The position numbers were made by a program, and so were the translations under genes. From sequence record PX441839.1: a stretch of DNA of 64,000 bases. One strand, written 5' to 3'. The notes under the pieces were generated by a model. The model did not search any database, was not told where the DNA came from, and was given only the letters and a program-made list of their open reading frames with translations. The DNA comes from a phage. Positions 1 to 30,112 of this stretch are shown in pieces. Every line of letters starts with the position of its first letter. Positions within the stretch are counted from its first letter, which is position 1.

Positions 1-2769
1 ACACTGGAAATTCGGCAAGGTGCTCTGTATGTGCGCCCACAAGAGACCCAGATCTCTCAAGATCCTGCAAACAAGATTGAACTGAAACCTGACGGTATCT
101 TTGTAGAAACCGTAAAAGGTGATAAGGGAGATACAGGTGAGCAAGGACCAGCAGGTCCAGAAGGTCCTCAGGGTCCAGCAGGTAAAGACGGCGCACCTGG
201 TGTAGAAGGTCCTCGTGGACCAGAAGGTGAAAGAGGTCCGGCTGGAATCGGCATCAATGTTATTGCTCAGTTGGCAACTGTTGATCAGCTTCCTCCTGTA
301 GAGAACTACGAAGATGGTGACACCTTCGTTATTGATGGTCACTTCTGGACTAAAACTACAGTAGGTGATACATCCCAGTGGACTGATGTCGGATCTTTCA
401 TTGGACCAGAAGGTCTGGATGCCTATGAGGTTGCTGTACAAGATGGTTTCGAAGGTACAGTTGATGAATGGTTGGCAAGCCTTCGTGGTGCTGACGGTAT
501 CGGTCTGCAACTCTTAGGTTCATTCAGAAGCGTTGATGACCTCCCAATGGAAGATAACAAGGCAGGTGATGCCTATATCGTCCAAGAGCAGATGTGGGTT
601 TGGGACACTGTTCAGTGGGCACCTGTTGGACAGGTTGGCCCAGAAGGTAAGTCAGCGTATCAAGTTTGGTTGGCTAATGGTAACACTGGTTCGCAGAATG
701 ACTTCTTGGCATCCTTAAAAGGAGAGAAAGGAGACAAGGGCGATAAAGGTGATAAAGGAGACAAGGGTGAAGACGGTAAGAACGCCAACGCCGTAAACAT
801 TCTTGGATCTGTTGAAACCGAGGCTGACCTTCCTGACGGTGCTGATGCCGGGGACGCATACCTGATCGGAGAGAACGTATGGGTATCCGATGGCGCAGGT
901 AAATGGACAGACCTTGGCTCTTTCCGTGGTCCAGAAGGTCCTCGTGGAGTACCTGGTGAAAAGGGTGACAAGGGCGATACTGGTGCTCAAGGTGGTACAG
1001 GTAAGAGCAACTATGACCTCGCTGTAGAGGAAGGATTCACTGGAACTGTTGCCGAATATTTGGAATCCATCAAGGGTGAAAAAGGAGACCAAGGTCCACA
1101 AGGTCCTCGTGGACTGACCGGACCTAAAGGCGACAAAGGTGACACTGGAACAGGACTTACAGTTAAAGGATCTGTTGCATCTGTAGAAGACCTACCTGCT
1201 GCTGGAAATGCAGAAGGTGATGCCTATTTCGTTGGTACTCATATGTATGTTTTCCTGTCTGGTGCATGGGAAGATGTCGGTGAGTTGAAAGGTGAAAAAG
1301 GCGATAAGGGTGACACAGGACCTAAGGGAGATACAGGCCCACAGGGTCCAGCGGGTGAGCGTGGTCCTCAGGGTGTTCAAGGTCTTAAAGGCGACACTGG
1401 CCCAGTGGGTCCTCAAGGACCAGCAGGTAGGGACGGTGTAGACGGTACAAACGGAACCGATGGTAAAGACGGAACAGGTCTGATGCCAAAAGGCACCGTT
1501 GCAACTCAGGCGGATCTCCCTGCAACTGGTAATTCTATCGGTGATTTTTATACGGTAGAAGAGGAAGGAAGGGGTTACGCTTGGAACGGAACAGAGTGGA
1601 TCTACTCCGGTGTGGCTCAGGGTCCTCAAGGACCAGCGGGTGAAAACGGTGCTGATGGTGCTACAGGTCCTCAAGGCCCACAGGGTCCTAAGGGTGACAA
1701 AGGAGACATGGGGCAAGGTATTCTGCCGAAGGGAACTGTCCCGACTCAGGCTGACCTTCCTACCGAAAACAATGAAATTGGTGACTTCTATGTTGCTGAT
1801 GACACTGGAATCGGTTACGCTTGGAATGGCACAACCTTCATTAACTCTGGGATTTCTCGTGGTAAAGACGGGGAACAAGGTCCACAGGGTGAACAGGGTA
1901 TTCAAGGTGAGCAGGGTCCTGCTGGTCCTAAGGGAGATACGGGGGATACTGGTCCTCAAGGCCCACAGGGGGATATTGGCCCAGGTGTAGAAATCATCGG
2001 TAAGCTGAATGATCCTTCTGAACTTCCGGCAACCGGAGAACTTGGTCAAGGATACCTGATCGAGGGTGACTTCTGGGGTTGGACAGGTCAAGCTTACGAG
2101 AACTTGGGACAGATTCGCGGACCTGCGGGTCCGGTTGGTCCACAAGGGAACCCAGGTCCTGTAGGTGAGCAGGGTGTTCGTGGTGAGAAGGGTGATCAAG
2201 GCTCCTTATGGATCGTCTTTGGTAGAGAACCTACTCCTGCTGATGGTCGCGTAGGTGACTACTTCATGAACTCTTCCACTCTGGAGTTCTTCCGTAAGAC
2301 TTCTGCAACCAACTGGGCATCTCTTGGTTACATGGGTGGCGGTAACGTCTACGATGCACCTAAAGATGGGAAGCAGTACACCCGTTTAGATGGTGATTGG
2401 GAAGTTCTTTCTGTTACTGAGGCACCTGAGGACGGTGGGTACTACATCCGTACCAATGGTCAATGGCAAAAATTAGATCGTTACGACCTCCGTGTTGTTG
2501 AAACTACAGGTGCTATGGACGTATCTGTGAGTAACTGCTTCAAGGTTGACGGGACGGCTAATAAAACCATGTCTCTCACAGGACTCCCTCCTGACAGGGC
2601 GATGACTATTGTTATTCGCTTCTTGGGTAAAGGGGCGCAGTTGACTTGGCCTTCAAACCTTGCTTGGTCAAATGGTACACCTCCTGCTCTTGGCACAACC
2701 CGTACAGTGGTAACTCTGTTCTGGGACGGTGAATTCCTGACTGGGACTCAGGCGATGACTGTTGACTAA
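1..2769 (+). CDS. collagen-like repeat fiber protein (5-prime partial)
   Basis: ORF 31..2769 has no in-frame stop back to the window edge. Long Gly-X-Y tracts ([25 protein letters not shown]...) are interrupted by at least 6 copies of a ~50-aa module (DLP...GD.Y...W.W.G). TAA stop is followed by a terminator. Confidence 0.8.
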   Translation, partial: TLEIRQGALYVRPQETQISQDPANKIELKPDGIFVETVKGDKGDTGEQGPAGPEGPQGPAGKDGAPGVEGPRGPEGERGPAGIGINVIAQLATVDQLPPVENYEDGDTFVIDGHFWTKTTVGDTSQWTDVGSFIGPEGLDAYEVAVQDGFEGTVDEWLASLRGADGIGLQLLGSFRSVDDLPMEDNKAGDAYIVQEQMWVWDTVQWAPVGQVGPEGKSAYQVWLANGNTGSQNDFLASLKGEKGDKGDKGDKGDKGEDGKNANAVNILGSVETEADLPDGADAGDAYLIGENVWVSDGAGKWTDLGSFRGPEGPRGVPGEKGDKGDTGAQGGTGKSNYDLAVEEGFTGTVAEYLESIKGEKGDQGPQGPRGLTGPKGDKGDTGTGLTVKGSVASVEDLPAAGNAEGDAYFVGTHMYVFLSGAWEDVGELKGEKGDKGDTGPKGDTGPQGPAGERGPQGVQGLKGDTGPVGPQGPAGRDGVDGTNGTDGKDGTGLMPKGTVATQADLPATGNSIGDFYTVEEEGRGYAWNGTEWIYSGVAQGPQGPAGENGADGATGPQGPQGPKGDKGDMGQGILPKGTVPTQADLPTENNEIGDFYVADDTGIGYAWNGTTFINSGISRGKDGEQGPQGEQGIQGEQGPAGPKGDTGDTGPQGPQGDIGPGVEIIGKLNDPSELPATGELGQGYLIEGDFWGWTGQAYENLGQIRGPAGPVGPQGNPGPVGEQGVRGEKGDQGSLWIVFGREPTPADGRVGDYFMNSSTLEFFRKTSATNWASLGYMGGGNVYDAPKDGKQYTRLDGDWEVLSVTEAPEDGGYYIRTNGQWQKLDRYDLRVVETTGAMDVSVSNCFKVDGTANKTMSLTGLPPDRAMTIVIRFLGKGAQLTWPSNLAWSNGTPPALGTTRTVVTLFWDGEFLTGTQAMTVD

Positions 2770-2775
2770 TAAGCT

Positions 2776-2796
2776 GGGGGCTTCGGCCCCCTTTTT
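2776..2796 (+). terminator. rho-independent terminator
   Basis: GGGGGC-TTCG-GCCCCC hairpin followed by TTTTT, directly after the stop at 2769. Confidence 0.7.
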
Positions 2797-2810
2797 AAAA
2801 GGAGATTTAA

Positions 2811-3461
2811 ATGGCAGTAGATCCAAACAGCAAGATTGAAGCTTGGACACCCATGATCAGAATTTCTGACATGAAATATCCAGTTTACCTGCGTGACTAT
2901 CTTGAGGAGTACAAAAACGTCAGTATCGGGTCTTTCGTGTGGGAAAGCGGGATGCGTGAGGTTGGATACTTTAAAGTCCACGATGTAGAAATCCCTATTG
3001 GGGATGTAGTCGTAGAAGGTGAACCAGCCTATAACGAGGAAGATGAACTTTGGTATAAGACTTGGATTGTCAGGGATTTCACCGAAGAGGAGATTGCTCA
3101 CAATCTCTATATGGCAAAAGAGGACGCTAAGTCTCAAGCTTATCGAATTTTTACCAATGATCAATCTTCCGGTGTTCTGGTAGATGGAGATCAGTTTAAT
3201 GTTGAGCCTCGTGAGATTACCAACTTAAGAGGTACACTCGAACTTGCCAATTTAGCAGGTGATGAGGAGAAGTTTCTTGTTCGCAAGGCAGACTTTTCAA
3301 TTCTGGAGCTTACTGCAAAAGAGACTGTTGAAAAGGTCACAAAAATAATTCTAGAGCAAGGAAAGTTACACCAAGCCCTTCTGAGCCATGTAAAAGAAAT
3401 CATGGATGCGGAAGACAGTGATTTAATCCCACCAACCCCACACACTTTCTTAGGAGAATAA
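2811..3461 (+). CDS. hypothetical protein (structural module)
   Basis: 216-aa ORF, AAAGGAG RBS about 7 nt upstream of ATG, co-oriented with structural genes. Confidence 0.6.
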   Translation: MAVDPNSKIEAWTPMIRISDMKYPVYLRDYLEEYKNVSIGSFVWESGMREVGYFKVHDVEIPIGDVVVEGEPAYNEEDELWYKTWIVRDFTEEEIAHNLYMAKEDAKSQAYRIFTNDQSSGVLVDGDQFNVEPREITNLRGTLELANLAGDEEKFLVRKADFSILELTAKETVEKVTKIILEQGKLHQALLSHVKEIMDAEDSDLIPPTPHTFLGE

Positions 3462-3462
3462 T

Positions 3463-3813
3463 ATGTCTGCAATCGGCGGAACATCTTTAGGTCTGATTAC
3501 TGGCTATGCGATCATGGATCAGTCAACTGGTGAAACAAAAACCATCTCCGAGTTACTCAGTGGTGCTGGGGGCGGCACACCGGGTCCTGTTGGACCTAAG
3601 GGAGATCAGGGTGAAGTTGGACCTCAAGGACCTAAGGGCGACACAGGCCCTGCTGGACCGCAGGGTCCTCAAGGGGAGCAGGGTGTAGGTATTGCACATG
3701 CCAATACAAAAATTGATGGACGTAATGTAACCATTATGTTTACGATGACGGATAACACAGTGAAAGAAGTTGTTTTCACAATTCCTGAACCAACCCCGAC
3801 CCCCTCTGCCTGA
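3463..3813 (+). CDS. small collagen-like repeat protein
   Basis: 116 aa; Gly-X-Y tract [37 protein letters not shown]; AGGAG RBS; start overlaps previous stop (TAATATG). Confidence 0.65.
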   Translation: MSAIGGTSLGLITGYAIMDQSTGETKTISELLSGAGGGTPGPVGPKGDQGEVGPQGPKGDTGPAGPQGPQGEQGVGIAHANTKIDGRNVTIMFTMTDNTVKEVVFTIPEPTPTPSA

Positions 3814-3870: not shown

Positions 3871-4545
3871 ATGGCAAAGCTTAAGGGTATTACTGGAAAT
3901 CAAAATGGGGTATTCTATGGTTATGCCCTCTATGATTTAAAATCTGAGAAGCTTATTCCTTTTAATGAGATTGGGGTAGGAGGCGGAGAAGCAGAGCAAG
4001 GTCCGGTAGGTCCTGTTGGACCACAAGGACCTAAAGGTGACAAAGGTGATCCTGGACCTCAAGGTTTGAGAGGTCCTCAAGGTCCTCAGGGACCTAAAGG
4101 TGATCCTGGCGCAAAGGGTGATGAAGGGATCGATGGTGCTGTTGGACCACAAGGTCCAAAAGGGGATAGGGGAGAACCAGGACCAGAAGGACCACAAGGT
4201 CCAATCGGACCCCGTGGACCAGTGGGACCTGCGGGAGCGACGGGTCTTAACTGGAAGGGACAGTATTCTGACTCTGTTACTTATCTTCTTGACGACGCTG
4301 TCGCGTTTAATGGTGCAACCTACTTTTCTGTCAAGGAGTCAACAGGGATAAGCCCAGCGGAAGATACAGTTCAAGAATACTGGGCTGTAATGGCAGCTTC
4401 TGGGGTAAAGGGAGACCAAGGTCCACAAGGTCCCGTGGGACCAGTGGGTCCTCAAGGTGAAAGAGGTGAACAGGGTATTCAAGGACCGAGAGGTCCAGTT
4501 GGAGAGACAGGACCTGCTGGACCTCGCGGACCGGAAGGGATTTAG
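3871..4545 (+). CDS. collagen-like repeat protein (ends at in-frame TAG)
   Basis: 224 aa with several Gly-X-Y tracts and a globular insert ([24 protein letters not shown]...). The stop is TAG at 4543-4545 and the same frame continues as collagen-like sequence. Confidence 0.6.
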
Positions 4546-4860
4546 GGACCACAGGGACCTCAAGGTATTCAGGGTCCTCAAGGTAAAAAGGGAGTTAATT
4601 GGAGGGGGAACTGGTTTAGAAACACCACATACACGAAAGATGACGCTGTTTATTTTGAAGGTACGAGTTGGATTTGCGATATAGACCATTCCTCGTCAGA
4701 TGACAATAAACCGGGAAGCCCTCAAAGATTTAAGTGGGCAGTTTTCGCCAAGAAAGGGGAAGACGGTCCTCAAGGACCTGCGGGAGAGCCAAAGAAAATC
4801 AACCATGTACTTCGGAATTGCTCCTGGAAATGGGGTGACATCATTCCTTGGACTTCCTAA
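4546..4860 (+). other. collagen-like reading frame continuing after the TAG, no start codon of its own
   Basis: Same frame as 3871..4545 encodes GPQGPQGIQGPQGKKG, a second copy of the NW.G....TY..DDAV.F.G module, and GEDGPQGPAGEP, then a TAA stop at 4858-4860. Confidence 0.4.
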
Positions 4861-25114: not shown

Positions 25115-27613
25115 ATGATACCTTTCCCATTATTAGGTGGAAAATCACCAACTCCACCACCGCCACTTCCAAAGGGCGTTTCTGGGTACTCAGGAACTAC
25201 CTACATAGGTGAAGATGGTGAAACTTGGTCTTGGAACAGGCAACTGGAGAGATGGATTAAAAAAGATCCGTTTCCAGTTGACGAAGGGCATCCTGAACAC
25301 TTCATGGTGGGGCCTGCAAAGATAGGCACAGATGGTTCTTTCCGATACTTCAATACTGTAACCAACGCTTGGGAAGATGTTCCTAACGGGAGCACCTTGG
25401 GGATGGTCCCTCTGACCCTGACAGATGAAGGCGTAAACATAGGGACATCGGTATTTGTAGAGTATCCCATTTATCAATCCGCTGGGTATGCCGTAGGTCT
25501 TGGAGGGTTCGCAAGACTGCTTGGGACGGAGGTACTGGGAAGACCAGATCTTATGGACCTGTACCTTATAGGAAGAAGAGGGGATTTCTTTTCACCTTCT
25601 CCTGCAAACCCTGACTCCACCAACGCAATTCTCGTAATTCGAAATGTTAAAAGGGATAGGGTGTGGAATACTTACCTGAACATGGTTGTGGAAACAAGTG
25701 ATGGGGAGATGTGGGCTTGGGGAATGAACTTCTATAATCAGTACGGCCCTTGGATAAGAAGCGGAGTAACAAGTTCCAGTCAACCACACATGAAGATAAA
25801 CCCATTCTCTAAAATATCTGATTTTCCAGTACCACCTGAGAAAATAAAAGATATCTTCCCCGGTGTAACAATGGTCATAGTTGCAGACACTGACGGGAAA
25901 TTCTGGTCCAAAGGGATTAACATTGGTCAGTTTAACGATATTGATGACCAAATTAGGACAGCCTGGGTAGAGATACCCGCAGATAGGTTCCCAGGGTTTA
26001 AAAAGTTTTATCGGAGTCTTAACGGAACAGGTGCCGCCAATGATCTTGCTTACACCAACTGCGTTTGGTATTTGACAGATACAGGGATAAGACATTTTGG
26101 AAATGTGTATGGAGTGATGGACGGTTCCCCACTTGTATCTGCAACAACTAGGGATCTCCCTGACAGTAAAGTTCACTCAGCCCCTGTAGGATTGCCTGAA
26201 AGGAATGATGAGCCTAAAATAGTGAGTTTTTCACTGGCCAGATCTTCTGACTATATCCTTATTGCTGTTTGGTATGATGACCCCGAAGAGATGTATGTTG
26301 CCTATCCTACTTCTGGACTTATTTGGGACCACGCAGATGGAGTAACGTATGGGAGGAGATTCAATAAATCCTCAGCCCCTGTAGGGAAGCATAGGAACCC
26401 CATACTGGACTTCAATAAAGAGGCCACCCTTATAACGGGGTTTGATGGAAAATTCTATGCTTCTGGGACCCCAAGTGTAAATAACGGGCTATACTCAAGA
26501 ACCAGCCCAACCACTTTTATCGACCAGAAGATGCCATCCTCTCTCGTTTATCAGGTTGAGCTATCCGACTCTGTAAACGGAAAAACTCAACTGTTGAGAA
26601 ATGATAGGCGTTCTTTAATGATAGCCGACCTTTCGGGAGGAAGCAACTACTTTGGAAATGGAACTTTCTGGAAACCAACTGCAACGATTAAGTGGCCTGA
26701 CTATCCAGACGCAATTCCAATAGTGTTCAAGAATGATGGTGTCACTATCTCGGGATCTGCTGAAAGGGTAGATACGTTTTGGGGGTGGAATGTTAGCAAC
26801 TACAACACTGTCAGCAGTACAGCCGGAGACCAGTACGGTGCTCCCAGTGGGGATGCTGTGCATGTCTCAGGGGAAGGGCACCTTACAATCTGGAAAGATG
26901 ATAGCAGTATCCTTGTTGGTGGTTACAACATAGGTGGAGTGTTTGGTGCTTTTAACCAGTGGAAGCAACCACAAGGTGCTGGAAGGTGGGTAGGCACAGT
27001 AAGAGAGTCTTTTACTGGCACATCGACAGTAAGCTGCGGAACCACTATTGCTTGGGATGGAAAAGATCATTACATATTTGGCAAAAACTACTGGGATGTT
27101 GCAAACGGACAACCAGTAATAAAGTTCAGTTCCTCTGCACCTGTAAAATGGAACAGTAAACAGGGATACCCGAACCTCCCTAATTTTATAAAATGGATTC
27201 CTGCAATTATGGGATATTCTGATGACGAGGGTTCTTTGCAACAACCCTTCTTTATGTATCGGGGTACTGACGGTCTGTTTTATGCTGCGGGTAGCAATAC
27301 AACAGGTGCCTTGGCGACAGGGACCCCACCTGAGACAAGGGATGAGCAAAGATGGACTTTTGAGGTAATGAAGGGATCTGAGGTGTTTGTTGGTAAAAAT
27401 GTTAAGGTTTACCACGGACACGGAAATACCTCTTGTTTGTTGTTCGCTTGCGAGGGAAAGGTGTACGGTGTTGGATTACCTAACAGTATGAAATGGAATG
27501 ACACCGGAACCATCCCTGACCCGTTCTTCCCTGGTTTCAACAGAAGGCTTAATGAAATCACCTACCTGATGGATTTGCCGGATGTTATCTATACCCGACC
27601 AATAGAAGAATAA
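25115..27613 (+). CDS. RCC1-like beta-propeller repeat protein (candidate distal fiber/receptor-binding protein)
   Basis: 832 aa; GAGGAG RBS; at least 5 repeats of [DG].G..[WYF]..G.N..G type (EMWAWGMNFYNQYG, KFWSKGINIGQFND, KFYASGTPSVNNGLY, LFYAAGSNTTGALATG, KVYGVGLPNSMKWND); last gene of the plus-strand operon. Confidence 0.6.
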   Translation: MIPFPLLGGKSPTPPPPLPKGVSGYSGTTYIGEDGETWSWNRQLERWIKKDPFPVDEGHPEHFMVGPAKIGTDGSFRYFNTVTNAWEDVPNGSTLGMVPLTLTDEGVNIGTSVFVEYPIYQSAGYAVGLGGFARLLGTEVLGRPDLMDLYLIGRRGDFFSPSPANPDSTNAILVIRNVKRDRVWNTYLNMVVETSDGEMWAWGMNFYNQYGPWIRSGVTSSSQPHMKINPFSKISDFPVPPEKIKDIFPGVTMVIVADTDGKFWSKGINIGQFNDIDDQIRTAWVEIPADRFPGFKKFYRSLNGTGAANDLAYTNCVWYLTDTGIRHFGNVYGVMDGSPLVSATTRDLPDSKVHSAPVGLPERNDEPKIVSFSLARSSDYILIAVWYDDPEEMYVAYPTSGLIWDHADGVTYGRRFNKSSAPVGKHRNPILDFNKEATLITGFDGKFYASGTPSVNNGLYSRTSPTTFIDQKMPSSLVYQVELSDSVNGKTQLLRNDRRSLMIADLSGGSNYFGNGTFWKPTATIKWPDYPDAIPIVFKNDGVTISGSAERVDTFWGWNVSNYNTVSSTAGDQYGAPSGDAVHVSGEGHLTIWKDDSSILVGGYNIGGVFGAFNQWKQPQGAGRWVGTVRESFTGTSTVSCGTTIAWDGKDHYIFGKNYWDVANGQPVIKFSSSAPVKWNSKQGYPNLPNFIKWIPAIMGYSDDEGSLQQPFFMYRGTDGLFYAAGSNTTGALATGTPPETRDEQRWTFEVMKGSEVFVGKNVKVYHGHGNTSCLLFACEGKVYGVGLPNSMKWNDTGTIPDPFFPGFNRRLNEITYLMDLPDVIYTRPIEE

Positions 27614-27621
27614 CAACCAAT

Positions 27622-27653
27622 AAAAAGGCTCCCGAATGGGAGCCTTTTCTTTT
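27622..27653. terminator. bidirectional rho-independent terminator between convergent operons
   Basis: AAAAAGGCTCCC-gaat-GGGAGCCTTTTCTTTT, A-run on one side and T-run on the other, between the + gene ending 27613 and the - gene ending 27659. Confidence 0.7.
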
Positions 27654-27658
27654 ATGTA

Positions 27659-28858
27659 TTACAGGACATAAATCACGTGGTTAGGATATTGAAGCCCTAC
27701 CGGAGCGAAGGGGATGTCATCATCGAAATCCATAACATCTGGGGTGTAGTCCAGATGACCATCATCGCTTACCGGAACTTGAGGATTAGTATCCTGAGGT
27801 TTTTGTTCCAGTTGAGGTTCAGGGGCTTTTTCTGGAGACGCGTCTTTCCGAACAAGGTCTTCTGTCGCATTGATGAATCGGAAGGTTGTTTCCACATTCT
27901 CAATAAACTGATCAATACCTTCTTGACTGTGTCGAGCAGCCAAGATACCGGATTGGCCCAGACGAGCACCAAACGCATAATCATCCATACCTTTGAACTC
28001 TTCCCGCAGCTTGGCCTTGATGGTATCCATAGCTTTCAGAACCTGCACCACAATAATTTGCTGATCGACGATAGCTGCATTTGGGAACATTGCATCTGTG
28101 ATAGTCAGTGCGTTGCCTAAACGAATCGGCAAGTCATCCTTTCCACCTTTACGGGAACCACCTGCACCACCTGCACCTTTTGGACCATAAGCCTTGAAAG
28201 CACTGATTGAACCATCAGCCGCCCGCTGACCAGCCAAACGACCACCCTCTTGGATCTGGGAGAGTTGCTCGTCTGACAGCTTAACGGTAACATCGCCATT
28301 ATCTGTCTTCACTACAACGTCTGAGCCGCTCACAGAGACGATTTCTCCGTAAACCTTAGTGGTTGCACCACCTGCACCTTGAGAGCCTCCCTGAGGTGTC
28401 TGAGAGCCTTGCGGAGCTACATCTCGAGCACCAGATGCATCGGTAATTTTAATTTTGTTCTTTTTACCCTCGGTGGAGGTTCGTTCATTACCCTCTCGGT
28501 CTTTGTAATATTTAACCTGCACTGGTAGACGAATCTTCATGCCTGGTTTAAGGCTTACATATTTGTCACCTTCTTTGATCTGGAACTGATCTTCGTATTT
28601 CAAGTTCTTAACTTCACCTTCTCCAAAAGAGATCCAAGCTGAATCTTCACCTTCTTTCAACAGGATAGAATAGCGATGGGTAGACTTGATAGTCTTACCT
28701 GCATTTGGACCCTTGTTGATGTGGGTGATTTTAGGACTACCGTCCTCATTGATACGTTTGATATTGATACGTTCAATTGTTCCAGCGGCGACGTGTACAG
28801 TCACATCATTAACAGCATCATAAACAGAGTTAACAACTTGAATTTTAACTTCGGACAT
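27659..28858 (-). CDS. hypothetical protein (Gly-rich linkers; internal DDDIPF motif)
   Basis: 399 aa; contains DFDDDIPF, which resembles the SSB acidic tail motif but is not at the C-terminus; function unassigned. Confidence 0.55.
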   Translation of the reverse strand: MSEVKIQVVNSVYDAVNDVTVHVAAGTIERINIKRINEDGSPKITHINKGPNAGKTIKSTHRYSILLKEGEDSAWISFGEGEVKNLKYEDQFQIKEGDKYVSLKPGMKIRLPVQVKYYKDREGNERTSTEGKKNKIKITDASGARDVAPQGSQTPQGGSQGAGGATTKVYGEIVSVSGSDVVVKTDNGDVTVKLSDEQLSQIQEGGRLAGQRAADGSISAFKAYGPKGAGGAGGSRKGGKDDLPIRLGNALTITDAMFPNAAIVDQQIIVVQVLKAMDTIKAKLREEFKGMDDYAFGARLGQSGILAARHSQEGIDQFIENVETTFRFINATEDLVRKDASPEKAPEPQLEQKPQDTNPQVPVSDDGHLDYTPDVMDFDDDIPFAPVGLQYPNHVIYVL

Positions 28859-28889
28859 TTATTTCTCCTTCGGAATTAAGCCTCGTTTG

Positions 28890-28925
28890 AGGCCGGAACA
28901 ACATATTATCACAAATACTTAGATT
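28890..28925 (-). promoter_or_regulatory. putative promoter (TTGCAA ... TGaTAATAT) for the 27659..28858 gene
   Basis: Minus-strand TTGCAA, about 16-nt spacer, TG-extended TAATAT upstream of the AAGGAG RBS. Confidence 0.35.
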
Positions 28926-29728: not shown

Positions 29729-30112
29729 TTATTTTCTCCCCTTCTTACGGTGATAAACTCCACGTTTGGACAGAGGAATTTCCTCTGCATCTCTTCCATC
29801 AACACCATCTTCACCAGGTTCACCTTGAGGACCCATTGGACCTGCTGGTCCCATTGGCCCCATAGGTCCTACAGGTCCAGTGACAACACGAATGTCTTTA
29901 GGTTTGTACAGAGAATAACCCAAGCATCCAAACCAACCGATAAGTGTAATTACGCTCGGAGGCAAAAGGAAGAAGATAACAGTAAAGACAGAGATCATCC
30001 ACTTATTCCTGTGATCCTTCTTCCATGCGATAATTATTGGGGAAAAACTAATTGCCAATAAAATTAACAGAAAAACAAGACCGAGAGTGATGGCAGCTTC
30101 TGCAATTATCAT
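29729..30112 (-). CDS. membrane protein with C-terminal collagen-like repeat
   Basis: Two hydrophobic helices, then VTGPVGPMGPMGPAGPMGPQGEPGEDGVDG (about 9 Gly-X-Y triplets). Confidence 0.55.
   Translation of the reverse strand: MIIAEAAITLGLVFLLILLAISFSPIIIAWKKDHRNKWMISVFTVIFFLLPPSVITLIGWFGCLGYSLYKPKDIRVVTGPVGPMGPMGPAGPMGPQGEPGEDGVDGRDAEEIPLSKRGVYHRKKGRK

Follow-up and report, generated by a model that had tools for sequence, protein, structure and literature searches.

A modular collagen-like phage fiber with repeated beta-strand modules, foldon-like hairpins, and a conserved partner gene

Introduction

Collagen-like fibers rank among the commonest components of large phages and also among the least resolved; their flexibility defeats cryo-electron microscopy (cryo-EM), and databases name them 'tail fiber' solely from the collagen domain. 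Among the closest described systems are proteins from prophages of enterohemorrhagic Escherichia coli: the non-collagen domains of EPclA are trimerization modules, and EPclB, whose two collagen helices are separated by a Pf2 repeat, was seen by rotary shadowing as a beaded molecule in 2012 (PMC3368898). The collagen-like fiber gene considered here lies at the start (1..2769, plus strand) of a 64,000-nucleotide (nt) stretch of phage DNA from sequence record PX441839.1, the whole of which is called the window below. Its full-length orthologs SSBI34 QYC52516, phiTE_215, and CB7_10 (PHROG 3904, from Certrevirus-like Vequintavirinae) have the same module order and synteny, and the published notes on them mention only 'a collagen domain', with the modules, foldons, knob, and partner gene not described there.

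An earlier note on this DNA, composed from the sequence alone, had depicted the gene product as beads on a string, with Gly-X-Y tracts alternating with a repeated module. That picture is borne out by the 99 triplets and the repeated domains described below, and as a description it was accurate. What it overlooked is that the window truncates the gene, that an additional degenerate module is present, that foldon-like hairpins and a knob follow the modules, and that a partner gene lies downstream. Our proposal, held with moderate confidence, is that the product is an extended, segmented fiber, probably a homotrimer, whose trimerization and registration nodes are the modules, helical hairpins, and foldons, and that its C-terminal knob works with the 216-amino-acid (aa) product of the downstream gene.

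Anatomy of the fiber

The fiber frame (frame 1 of the plus strand) comprises 922 codons plus a stop and is open from base 1 to the stop codon at 2767-2769, which indicates that the gene is cut by the 5' edge of the window. Approximately 170-200 N-terminal aa are missing, judging from the alignment with PHROG 3904 ('tail fiber protein'; E 1.1e-298, residues 2-921 corresponding to model positions 199-1085/1086) and from comparison with the 1,092-aa SSBI34 ortholog, which has 173 extra N-terminal residues. When the translation is set against the full-length SSBI34 and CB7 proteins, 1..117 is found to encode the final part of the N-terminal non-collagen region. This product is the short end of a beta-rich region and carries a repeated 'N.L....dG(L/I).V' motif.

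Pfam Collagen (PF01391) matches the fiber over seven stretches (E 3.2e-38; 129.7 bits against a cut-off of 27.2), and the 99 Gly-X-Y triplets fall into nine runs, comprising eight main tracts of 21-63 residues and one run of three triplets (aa 210-218). The main tracts are found at aa 40-84 (tract 1, 15 triplets; 118..252), 241-261 (tract 2; 721..783), 310-336 (tract 3; 928..1008), 359-385 (tract 4; 1075..1155), 431-493 (tract 5, the longest, 21 triplets; 1291..1479), 541-573 (tract 6; 1621..1719), 621-662 (tract 7; 1861..1986), and 707-736 (tract 8; 2119..2208). Proline is confined to the X position, and charged residues account for 40% of the X and Y positions, a make-up without hydroxyproline that is typical of prokaryotic collagens. 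If helical, the collagen part would be approximately 85 nm long, and the whole rod with its domains is estimated to exceed 100 nm. A (GDK) run in tract 2 is a 9-base-pair tandem repeat (718-761, plus strand, 4.9 copies) that encodes (Gly-Asp-Lys)n; its copy number is equal in SSBI34, and it is a candidate for slippage-driven length variation.

Two kinds of repeated domain accompany these tracts. The larger had been counted at six or more copies of approximately 50 aa; the count holds, with seven copies that are clear (M1-M7) and an eighth that is degenerate (M8), and the size is smaller, at approximately 46 aa. The copies share the family consensus ..I.G.......LP..G...GD.Y.I....WVW.G..W...G...G. 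and lie at 253..405 (M1), 505..639 (M2), 793..930 (M3), 1156..1293 (M4), 1480..1623 (M5), 1720..1863 (M6, 58% identical to M5), 1987..2121 (M7), and 2209..2340 (M8). A second, 25-aa short module (consensus SAY.vAv..GF.GT..eWL.SLkG) occurs three times, as the earlier note had recognized, at aa 139-163 (S1; 415..489), 217-241 (S2; 649..723), and 335-359 (S3; 1003..1077).

The significance of these repeats was assessed with leave-one-out hidden Markov models (HMMs) against 500 shuffles of the same residues. M1-M7 score 29-54 bits and none of the 500 shuffles exceeds 12 bits (for M1, 28.8 against a shuffle maximum of 11.7; for M2, 51.3 against 7.2), and the short modules S1-S3 reach 30-39 bits where their shuffles reach 8 at most. 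The only marginal copy is M8, whose 7.7 bits were reached by one of the 500 shuffles. Collagen-coding DNA yields many spurious repeats and overlapping open reading frames (ORFs), and the modules might on that account be taken for a compositional artefact of a glycine-rich, low-complexity frame. The scores just given speak against such an artefact, as do the confident structural models, the 5,353 database matches, and the detection of an ortholog by mass spectrometry, all presented below; together they refute this explanation, which we consider to have practically no chance of being correct.

Structure prediction likewise supports discrete domains. An AlphaFold monomer model of the M1-S1-M2-S2 segment, based on a 42-sequence alignment, has a mean predicted local distance difference test (pLDDT) value of 86, with the modules at 93-97. 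Each modelled module (M1 and M2) has four beta strands, the first of which is followed by a one-turn helix, and each modelled short module (S1 and S2) is a helix-turn-helix. In an independent model of the C-terminal 186 aa, M8 shares the four-strand fold of M1 and M2 (pLDDT 91-97). Conservation across 1,194 module instances, drawn from phages that infect many hosts, is highest at G5, L13, P14, G21, D22, Y24, W33, W38, G42, and G46. These positions are alike in phages of unrelated hosts, as would suit a structural core better than a host-specific site.

Searches with the module alone yielded few relatives of known structure or family. Single modules matched no family at E<=10 in the copy of Pfam that was searched, which did not include PF26696. 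The latter family is precomputed for six proteins from the homolog search, five of them fiber homologs and the other the short-module protein P0002, and may cover one element described here for the fiber. Foldseek comparison of the module model with the PDB gave nothing significant (best E 0.23), and PDB profile searches with 7 and with 116 module instances gave weak matches only, to JBD30 gp54 and phiKZ gp184. Other structural neighbors of the fiber domains are pieces of homotrimeric phage proteins, such as Acinetobacter phage tailspikes. DUF2793 (PF10983), of which the thigh domain of JBD30 gp54 is an example, reached no Pfam threshold on the fiber modules; it has a sub-threshold match in homolog P0076 (E 0.013) and weak PDB matches.

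Distribution and virion association

The architecture had been considered unusual, a view that does not survive a broader search. When 1.84 billion cluster representatives were searched with a profile built from the seven modules, 5,353 proteins matched at E<=1e-3 and 825 did so at E<=1e-10, with 5-15 matched stretches in many of them. All 120 of the 120 best whole-protein homologs have multiple modules (5-15), together with 0-25 short modules and 4-17 collagen tracts, and many of them carry a match to the Pfam family Fibritin_C; moreover, the beads of EPclB had been imaged in 2012. Used as the query of a word-indexed homolog search, the M-S-M-S segment yielded just three proteins, which share the short module alone, whereas the full-length query succeeded. 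Relatives of the fiber occur in phages of Pseudomonas, Erwinia, Ralstonia, Escherichia, and other hosts, and some homologs have tailspike-type N-terminal anchors (PF18668). Both module types are spread over several PHROG families, approximately half annotated as tail proteins and the rest as of unknown function.

The CB7 ortholog of the fiber, CB7_10 (112 kDa), was detected in purified virions by mass spectrometry with 39 unique peptides and 46% coverage, and the orthologs of the next two genes were likewise present in CB7 virions (PMC7344957). The proteomic check that the earlier note had proposed is therefore answered for the family, through the CB7 ortholog and not through this phage itself.

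C-terminal region and partner gene

Past the last module lie two tandem foldon-like beta hairpins, GNVYDAPKDGKQYTRLDGDWEVLS and VTEAPEDGGYYIRTNGQWQKLD (2341..2478), followed by the C-terminal knob, a beta sandwich of approximately 96 aa (2479..2766). Fibritin_C scores slightly below its Pfam cut-off on the fiber (20.2 bits against 21; E 7e-4), and in a phmmer search GNVYDAPKDGKQYTRLDGDWEVLS aligns with the foldon of T4 fibritin as carried by dozens of fusion constructs in the PDB (E 1e-6 to 1e-2). The AlphaFold monomer model of the C-terminal 186 aa (30 sequences, pLDDT 89) contains M8, the two hairpins, and then an eight-strand beta sandwich. Among homologs (C-terminal segments P0019-P0231), the number of tandem hairpins between the last module and the knob ranges from one to approximately five, as if the hairpin were itself an expandable repeat.

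A total of 238 phage records contain these C-terminal 186 aa, among them records of Certrevirus- and Seunavirus-type phages, of jumbo phages infecting Erwinia and Ralstonia, and of Burkholderia phages. The final domain occurs by itself in phiKZ gp146 and in phage EL, and the M8-foldon part in phi92 gp151 and in rV5-like 'lateral tail fiber with collagen domain' proteins. Conservation among orthologs is fairly flat along the fiber (35-82% identity), with both ends well kept; the C-terminal region is 67-74% conserved across hosts, and phages of Salmonella, Pectobacterium, Cronobacter, and Enterobacter share a knob that is 67% identical. The well-kept ends and knob argue against a strain-specific receptor-binding tip and for either a conserved protein-protein contact or a conserved ligand. 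A sequence search of the PDB found no relative of the fiber's N-terminal region, the knob, or the 216-aa partner, which indicates that the phiTE orthologs are not modelled in deposited structures.

The partner gene (2811..3461, plus strand) lies directly 3' of the fiber gene and encodes a conserved 216-aa protein of unknown function (PHROG 4998) with no Pfam match. It is found directly downstream of the fiber gene in close relatives and also in 4MG of Escherichia (2e-39) and in the jumbo phages Ea35-70 of Erwinia (4e-26) and RSL2 of Ralstonia (6e-15), and it is kept directly 3' of the fiber C-terminal region in Vequintavirinae, Agricanvirus, Chiangmaivirus, and other jumbo phages (loci L006-L047). 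The gene upstream of the fiber shows no conservation between Vequintavirinae and jumbo phages. At 31 of 39 IMG/VR loci with a partner homolog, a same-strand upstream ORF has the M8-foldon-knob region. In 24 of these 31, a gap of 19-145 nt separates the partner from the end of that ORF, which has 5-10 modules; in one more, from phage EL, it has eight modules and ends approximately 1.6 kilobases (kb) upstream; and in the remaining six it is short, consisting of the C-terminal region only. These loci indicate that the linkage is with the C-terminal region and not with the collagen. One candidate partner homolog, phiKZ gp147, was rejected.

Genes for a fiber and its dedicated chaperone or tip protein are paired in several phages, as exemplified by gp37-gp38 of T4 and fiber-Tfa of P2 and Mu. 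By analogy, the fiber and partner genes appear to have the arrangement of a fiber with such a protein. The partner ortholog CB7_11 was found in virions by mass spectrometry (PMC7344957), which makes a lasting cap or adaptor at least as likely as a transient chaperone. From the gene linkage, which is directly supported, we infer that the knob and the partner interact. This linkage also offers a handle for locating the fiber on the virion and for probing what it does during adsorption in phages related to the flagellotropic phiTE and CR3.

Proposed assembly of the fiber

Triple helices that are short and lack hydroxyproline have only marginal stability, and their folding is slow unless the three chains are aligned in register. 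EPclA data bear on this point (PMC3368898). In the proposed fiber, a collagen triple helix of approximately 85 nm would be divided into eight short segments, each only marginally stable by itself, with small autonomous domains (eight four-stranded beta modules and three helix-turn-helix short modules) between them and, past the last module, the two foldon-like hairpins and the beta-sandwich knob. The modules, helical hairpins, and foldons would gather three chains in register and nucleate the adjoining hydroxyproline-free triple helices, and the same nodes would double as joints, giving a flexible fiber with a rod of more than 100 nm. The C-terminal knob would pair with the 216-aa protein encoded downstream, which might be a chaperone, a cap, or an adaptor.

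The repeat anatomy, the wide distribution, and the confident monomer folds are directly supported; trimer formation by the modules and their nucleating role are proposed. The bracketing of each helix by confidently folded domains, the likeness of these domains to known trimerizing units, and the nature of the most conserved module residues (glycines, LP, GD, and three or four aromatics) together point to in-line trimerization and registration nodes. If the modules are self-contained nodes of this kind, they would explain how long phage collagen rods fold without proline hydroxylation, and they could provide compact substitutes for the T4 foldon in making recombinant collagens and trimeric antigens.

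Several observations weigh against this proposal. The models are of monomers only, and their predicted template modeling scores are low (0.37 and 0.52), which can be attributed to the domains being strung out. The hhalign comparison between module and foldon is weak (local P 8e-4, 25% probability, 13 columns, with one foldon-alignment row out of register), and the idea that the module is an extended foldon is unproven. M4-M6 are the least conserved modules among orthologs (35-52%), a divergence that would also suit a ligand-binding role. Finally, in the available portion of the phiTE cryo-EM study, the fiber ortholog is not placed, the neck shows no whiskers, the 'Pagoda' protein and a decoration protein are all that is seen on the capsid, and the baseplate region has a 'third putative fiber' that is unmodelled and unnamed in the text.

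The greater divergence of these central modules is one of the points in favor of a different function, in which the modules would be adhesive beads, either lectin-like or flagellum-binding, presented multivalently along the fiber with the collagen as a spacer. Both phiTE and CR3, which have fiber orthologs, are flagellotropic (PMC7344957, PMC11972413), conserved Trp and Tyr residues are abundant in the modules, and the weak sequence and structure match JBD30 gp54 is a phage receptor-binding protein. The gp54 match, however, is confined to residues 43-61 and 129-146, in and just past the N-terminal 'thigh' anchor (1-118) and not in the sugar-binding foot, and no carbohydrate-binding module is found among the structural neighbors. 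Furthermore, the aromatic positions recur in phages of unrelated hosts, as would suit a packing core, and fiber orthologs are also present in Seunavirus phages; Vequintavirinae outside Certrevirus are believed to use lipopolysaccharide rather than flagella as their receptor (PMC7344957). Adhesive beads thus seem quite unlikely, and modules that act as trimerization nodes are preferred.

Location on the virion

The presence of the ortholog in virions is directly supported, and for its place and role there we infer that it could be an accessory fiber associated with the tail, a whisker at the neck, or a fiber on the head. Tail placement is favored by database annotation, by the PF18668 tailspike-type N-termini of some homologs, and by the 'third putative fiber' reported in the accessible text of the phiTE study. 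RefSeq annotates exactly three phiTE tail fibers (215, 236, and 241), making phiTE 215 a plausible candidate for this third fiber; the original GenBank record calls it merely a 'virion structural protein'.

Gene order might point elsewhere. In relatives, genes for the portal, protease/scaffold, decoration protein, and major capsid protein are followed by a small gene, the fiber gene, the 216-aa gene, a small collagen-like gene, the neck genes, and the sheath and tube genes, and the neighborhood from the capsid gene through the small gene, fiber gene, and approximately 216-aa gene to the small collagen-like gene is common to SSBI34, CB7, phiTE, and 4MG; for the present phage, the upstream part of this comparison lies outside the window. 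The Vequintavirinae fiber gene is therefore located between the capsid gene and the head-completion and neck genes, far from the baseplate fiber genes, as might be expected if the protein were a counterpart of T4 fibritin, a neck whisker whose C-terminal end touches the long tail fibers for assembly or retraction. The foldon-like hairpins and segmented trimeric rod would suit a whisker, as would the estimated length of more than 100 nm (approximately 85 nm of helix plus domains), comparable to the approximately 102-nm phiTE tail. Structural neighbors of the C-terminal region include fiber-junction and attachment parts (gp34, gp9, the N terminus of CBA120 TSP4, and tailspike N termini), this region is the one conserved at 67-74% across hosts, and the accessible phiTE text proposes that the long tail fiber bends capsid-ward and contacts the third fiber. 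Even so, the phiTE connector reconstruction, as described in that text, reports neither collar nor whiskers, the fiber has no coiled coil, and its foldon is not at the extreme C terminus. In Ea35-70 and RSL2, moreover, the fiber genes have no annotated head or neck neighbor, most neighbors there being unannotated, and the PF18668 anchors of some homologs point to the baseplate. A neck whisker is consequently judged unlikely.

A capsid location is suggested by a different neighbor. The fiber gene lies in the neighborhood of the ortholog of the 'Pagoda' protein and similarity to the Pa223 capsid spike was found, and the fiber could accordingly be pictured as a head fiber anchored on the shell like the neighboring small collagen-like protein, prolonging contact with cells or flagella. 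The available part of the phiTE study, however, reports no long fibers on the capsid, the fiber N terminus shares no similarity with the two small collagen-like proteins encoded nearby, and databases annotate homologs as tail fibers, even if by collagen domain only. A capsid fiber is therefore considered very unlikely.

Neighboring collagen-like genes and genome context

The first 6 kb of the window are 83% identical at the nt level to Salmonella phage SSBI34 (Vequintavirinae), and approximately 1 kb (bases ~1948-3089) is 72-73% identical to Pectobacterium phages phiTE and CB7. The window comes from a large Vequintavirinae-like myophage of Salmonella type. The sign of the guanine-cytosine (GC) skew flips near 28 kb (window ~27600-28900), where the long ORFs change from plus (structural genes) to minus. 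The same correlation of GC skew with ORF orientation is described for CB7 (PMC7344957).

Further collagen-like genes had been listed at 3463, 3871, and 29729; the first two are real, and the third is a small minus-strand gene with few triplets. The gene at 3463-3813 (plus strand) encodes a 116-aa collagen-like protein orthologous to phiTE_217, which the available portion of the phiTE cryo-EM study assigns, by abundance only, to the unmodelled 'Pagoda' capsid decoration at hexamer centers. Its first ~35 residues (MSAIGGTSLGLITGYAIMD...) resemble the N terminus of the ORF at 3871, which suggests that the two encode paralogous, putatively capsid-bound collagen stalks. Within 3871-4860 (plus strand), a collagen-like ORF of 224 aa is terminated partway through a Gly-X-Y tract by an in-frame TAG (4543-4545), past which the same frame continues for approximately 104 further codons that include collagen triplets and a conserved 'GVNWRGNWFRNTT' motif. 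SSBI34 codes Glu at this position; an amber mutation, read-through at this site, or an error in sequencing could account for the TAG, and the region up to 5203 looks frame-broken in both this phage and SSBI34. The 127-aa protein encoded at 29729-30112 (minus strand, in an early or lysis region) has approximately nine Gly-X-Y triplets (GPVGPMGPMGPAGPMGPQGEPGEDGVDG) and a hydrophobic N-terminal half that, read by eye, looks like two membrane-spanning helices; it is of a different kind from the fibers.

Comparison with known systems

EPclA and EPclB resemble the fiber in that non-collagen trimerizing domains cap or divide the helices of a phage collagen, with EPclB taking the form of globules joined by stalks (PMC3368898). 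They differ in having one or two collagen domains instead of eight, in lacking a foldon, and in their PfN, PCoil, Pf2, and PfC domains, none of which was found in the fiber by Pfam. In particular, Phage_fiber_2 (Pf2, PF03406), the family of the lambda Stf and EPclB repeats, matched neither the fiber at E<=0.01 nor single modules at E<=10. T4 fibritin (wac) is similarly a segmented trimeric rod with a foldon-type beta hairpin near its end and a gene near the neck genes, but its rod is a coiled coil and its foldon lies at the extreme C terminus, whereas the fiber has a Gly-X-Y rod and two hairpins followed by a 96-aa domain. JBD30 gp54 differs from the module in that its two motif halves are approximately 70 residues apart.

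The predicted fold of the module may resemble the trimerization domain of the multiplexin collagens XV and XVIII (PDB 3n3f, 9bnb), a fold of four strands and a helix in approximately 55 residues; the animal domain ends a helix, whereas the phage module stands between two helices and is repeated. The PDB searches with profiles of 7 and of 116 module instances returned no collagen XV or XVIII chain at E<=10. A more ambitious synthesis, which we regard as possible yet doubtful when all of its parts are taken together, would make this widespread, Pfam-unmatched module an in-line trimerization and registration domain with the collagen XV/XVIII fold, reached by convergence or from a very distant common origin; many short hydroxyproline-free helices would be stapled by it, and the fiber and its partner would form a mobile two-gene cassette of Vequintavirinae and several jumbo-phage lineages.

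The closest known proteins remain the orthologs. SSBI34 QYC52516 is 99.5% identical to the fiber over the C-terminal 186 aa, nothing essential differs between the fiber and this protein, phiTE_215, or CB7_10, and the fiber is a phage collagen-like virion fiber of known type with a near-identical published ortholog. What goes beyond the published notes on these orthologs is that the predicted fold of the module may be like that of the multiplexin trimerization domain, that the module is widespread and is matched by no model in the Pfam copy searched, and that the C-terminal region and the 216-aa partner gene form a conserved pair.

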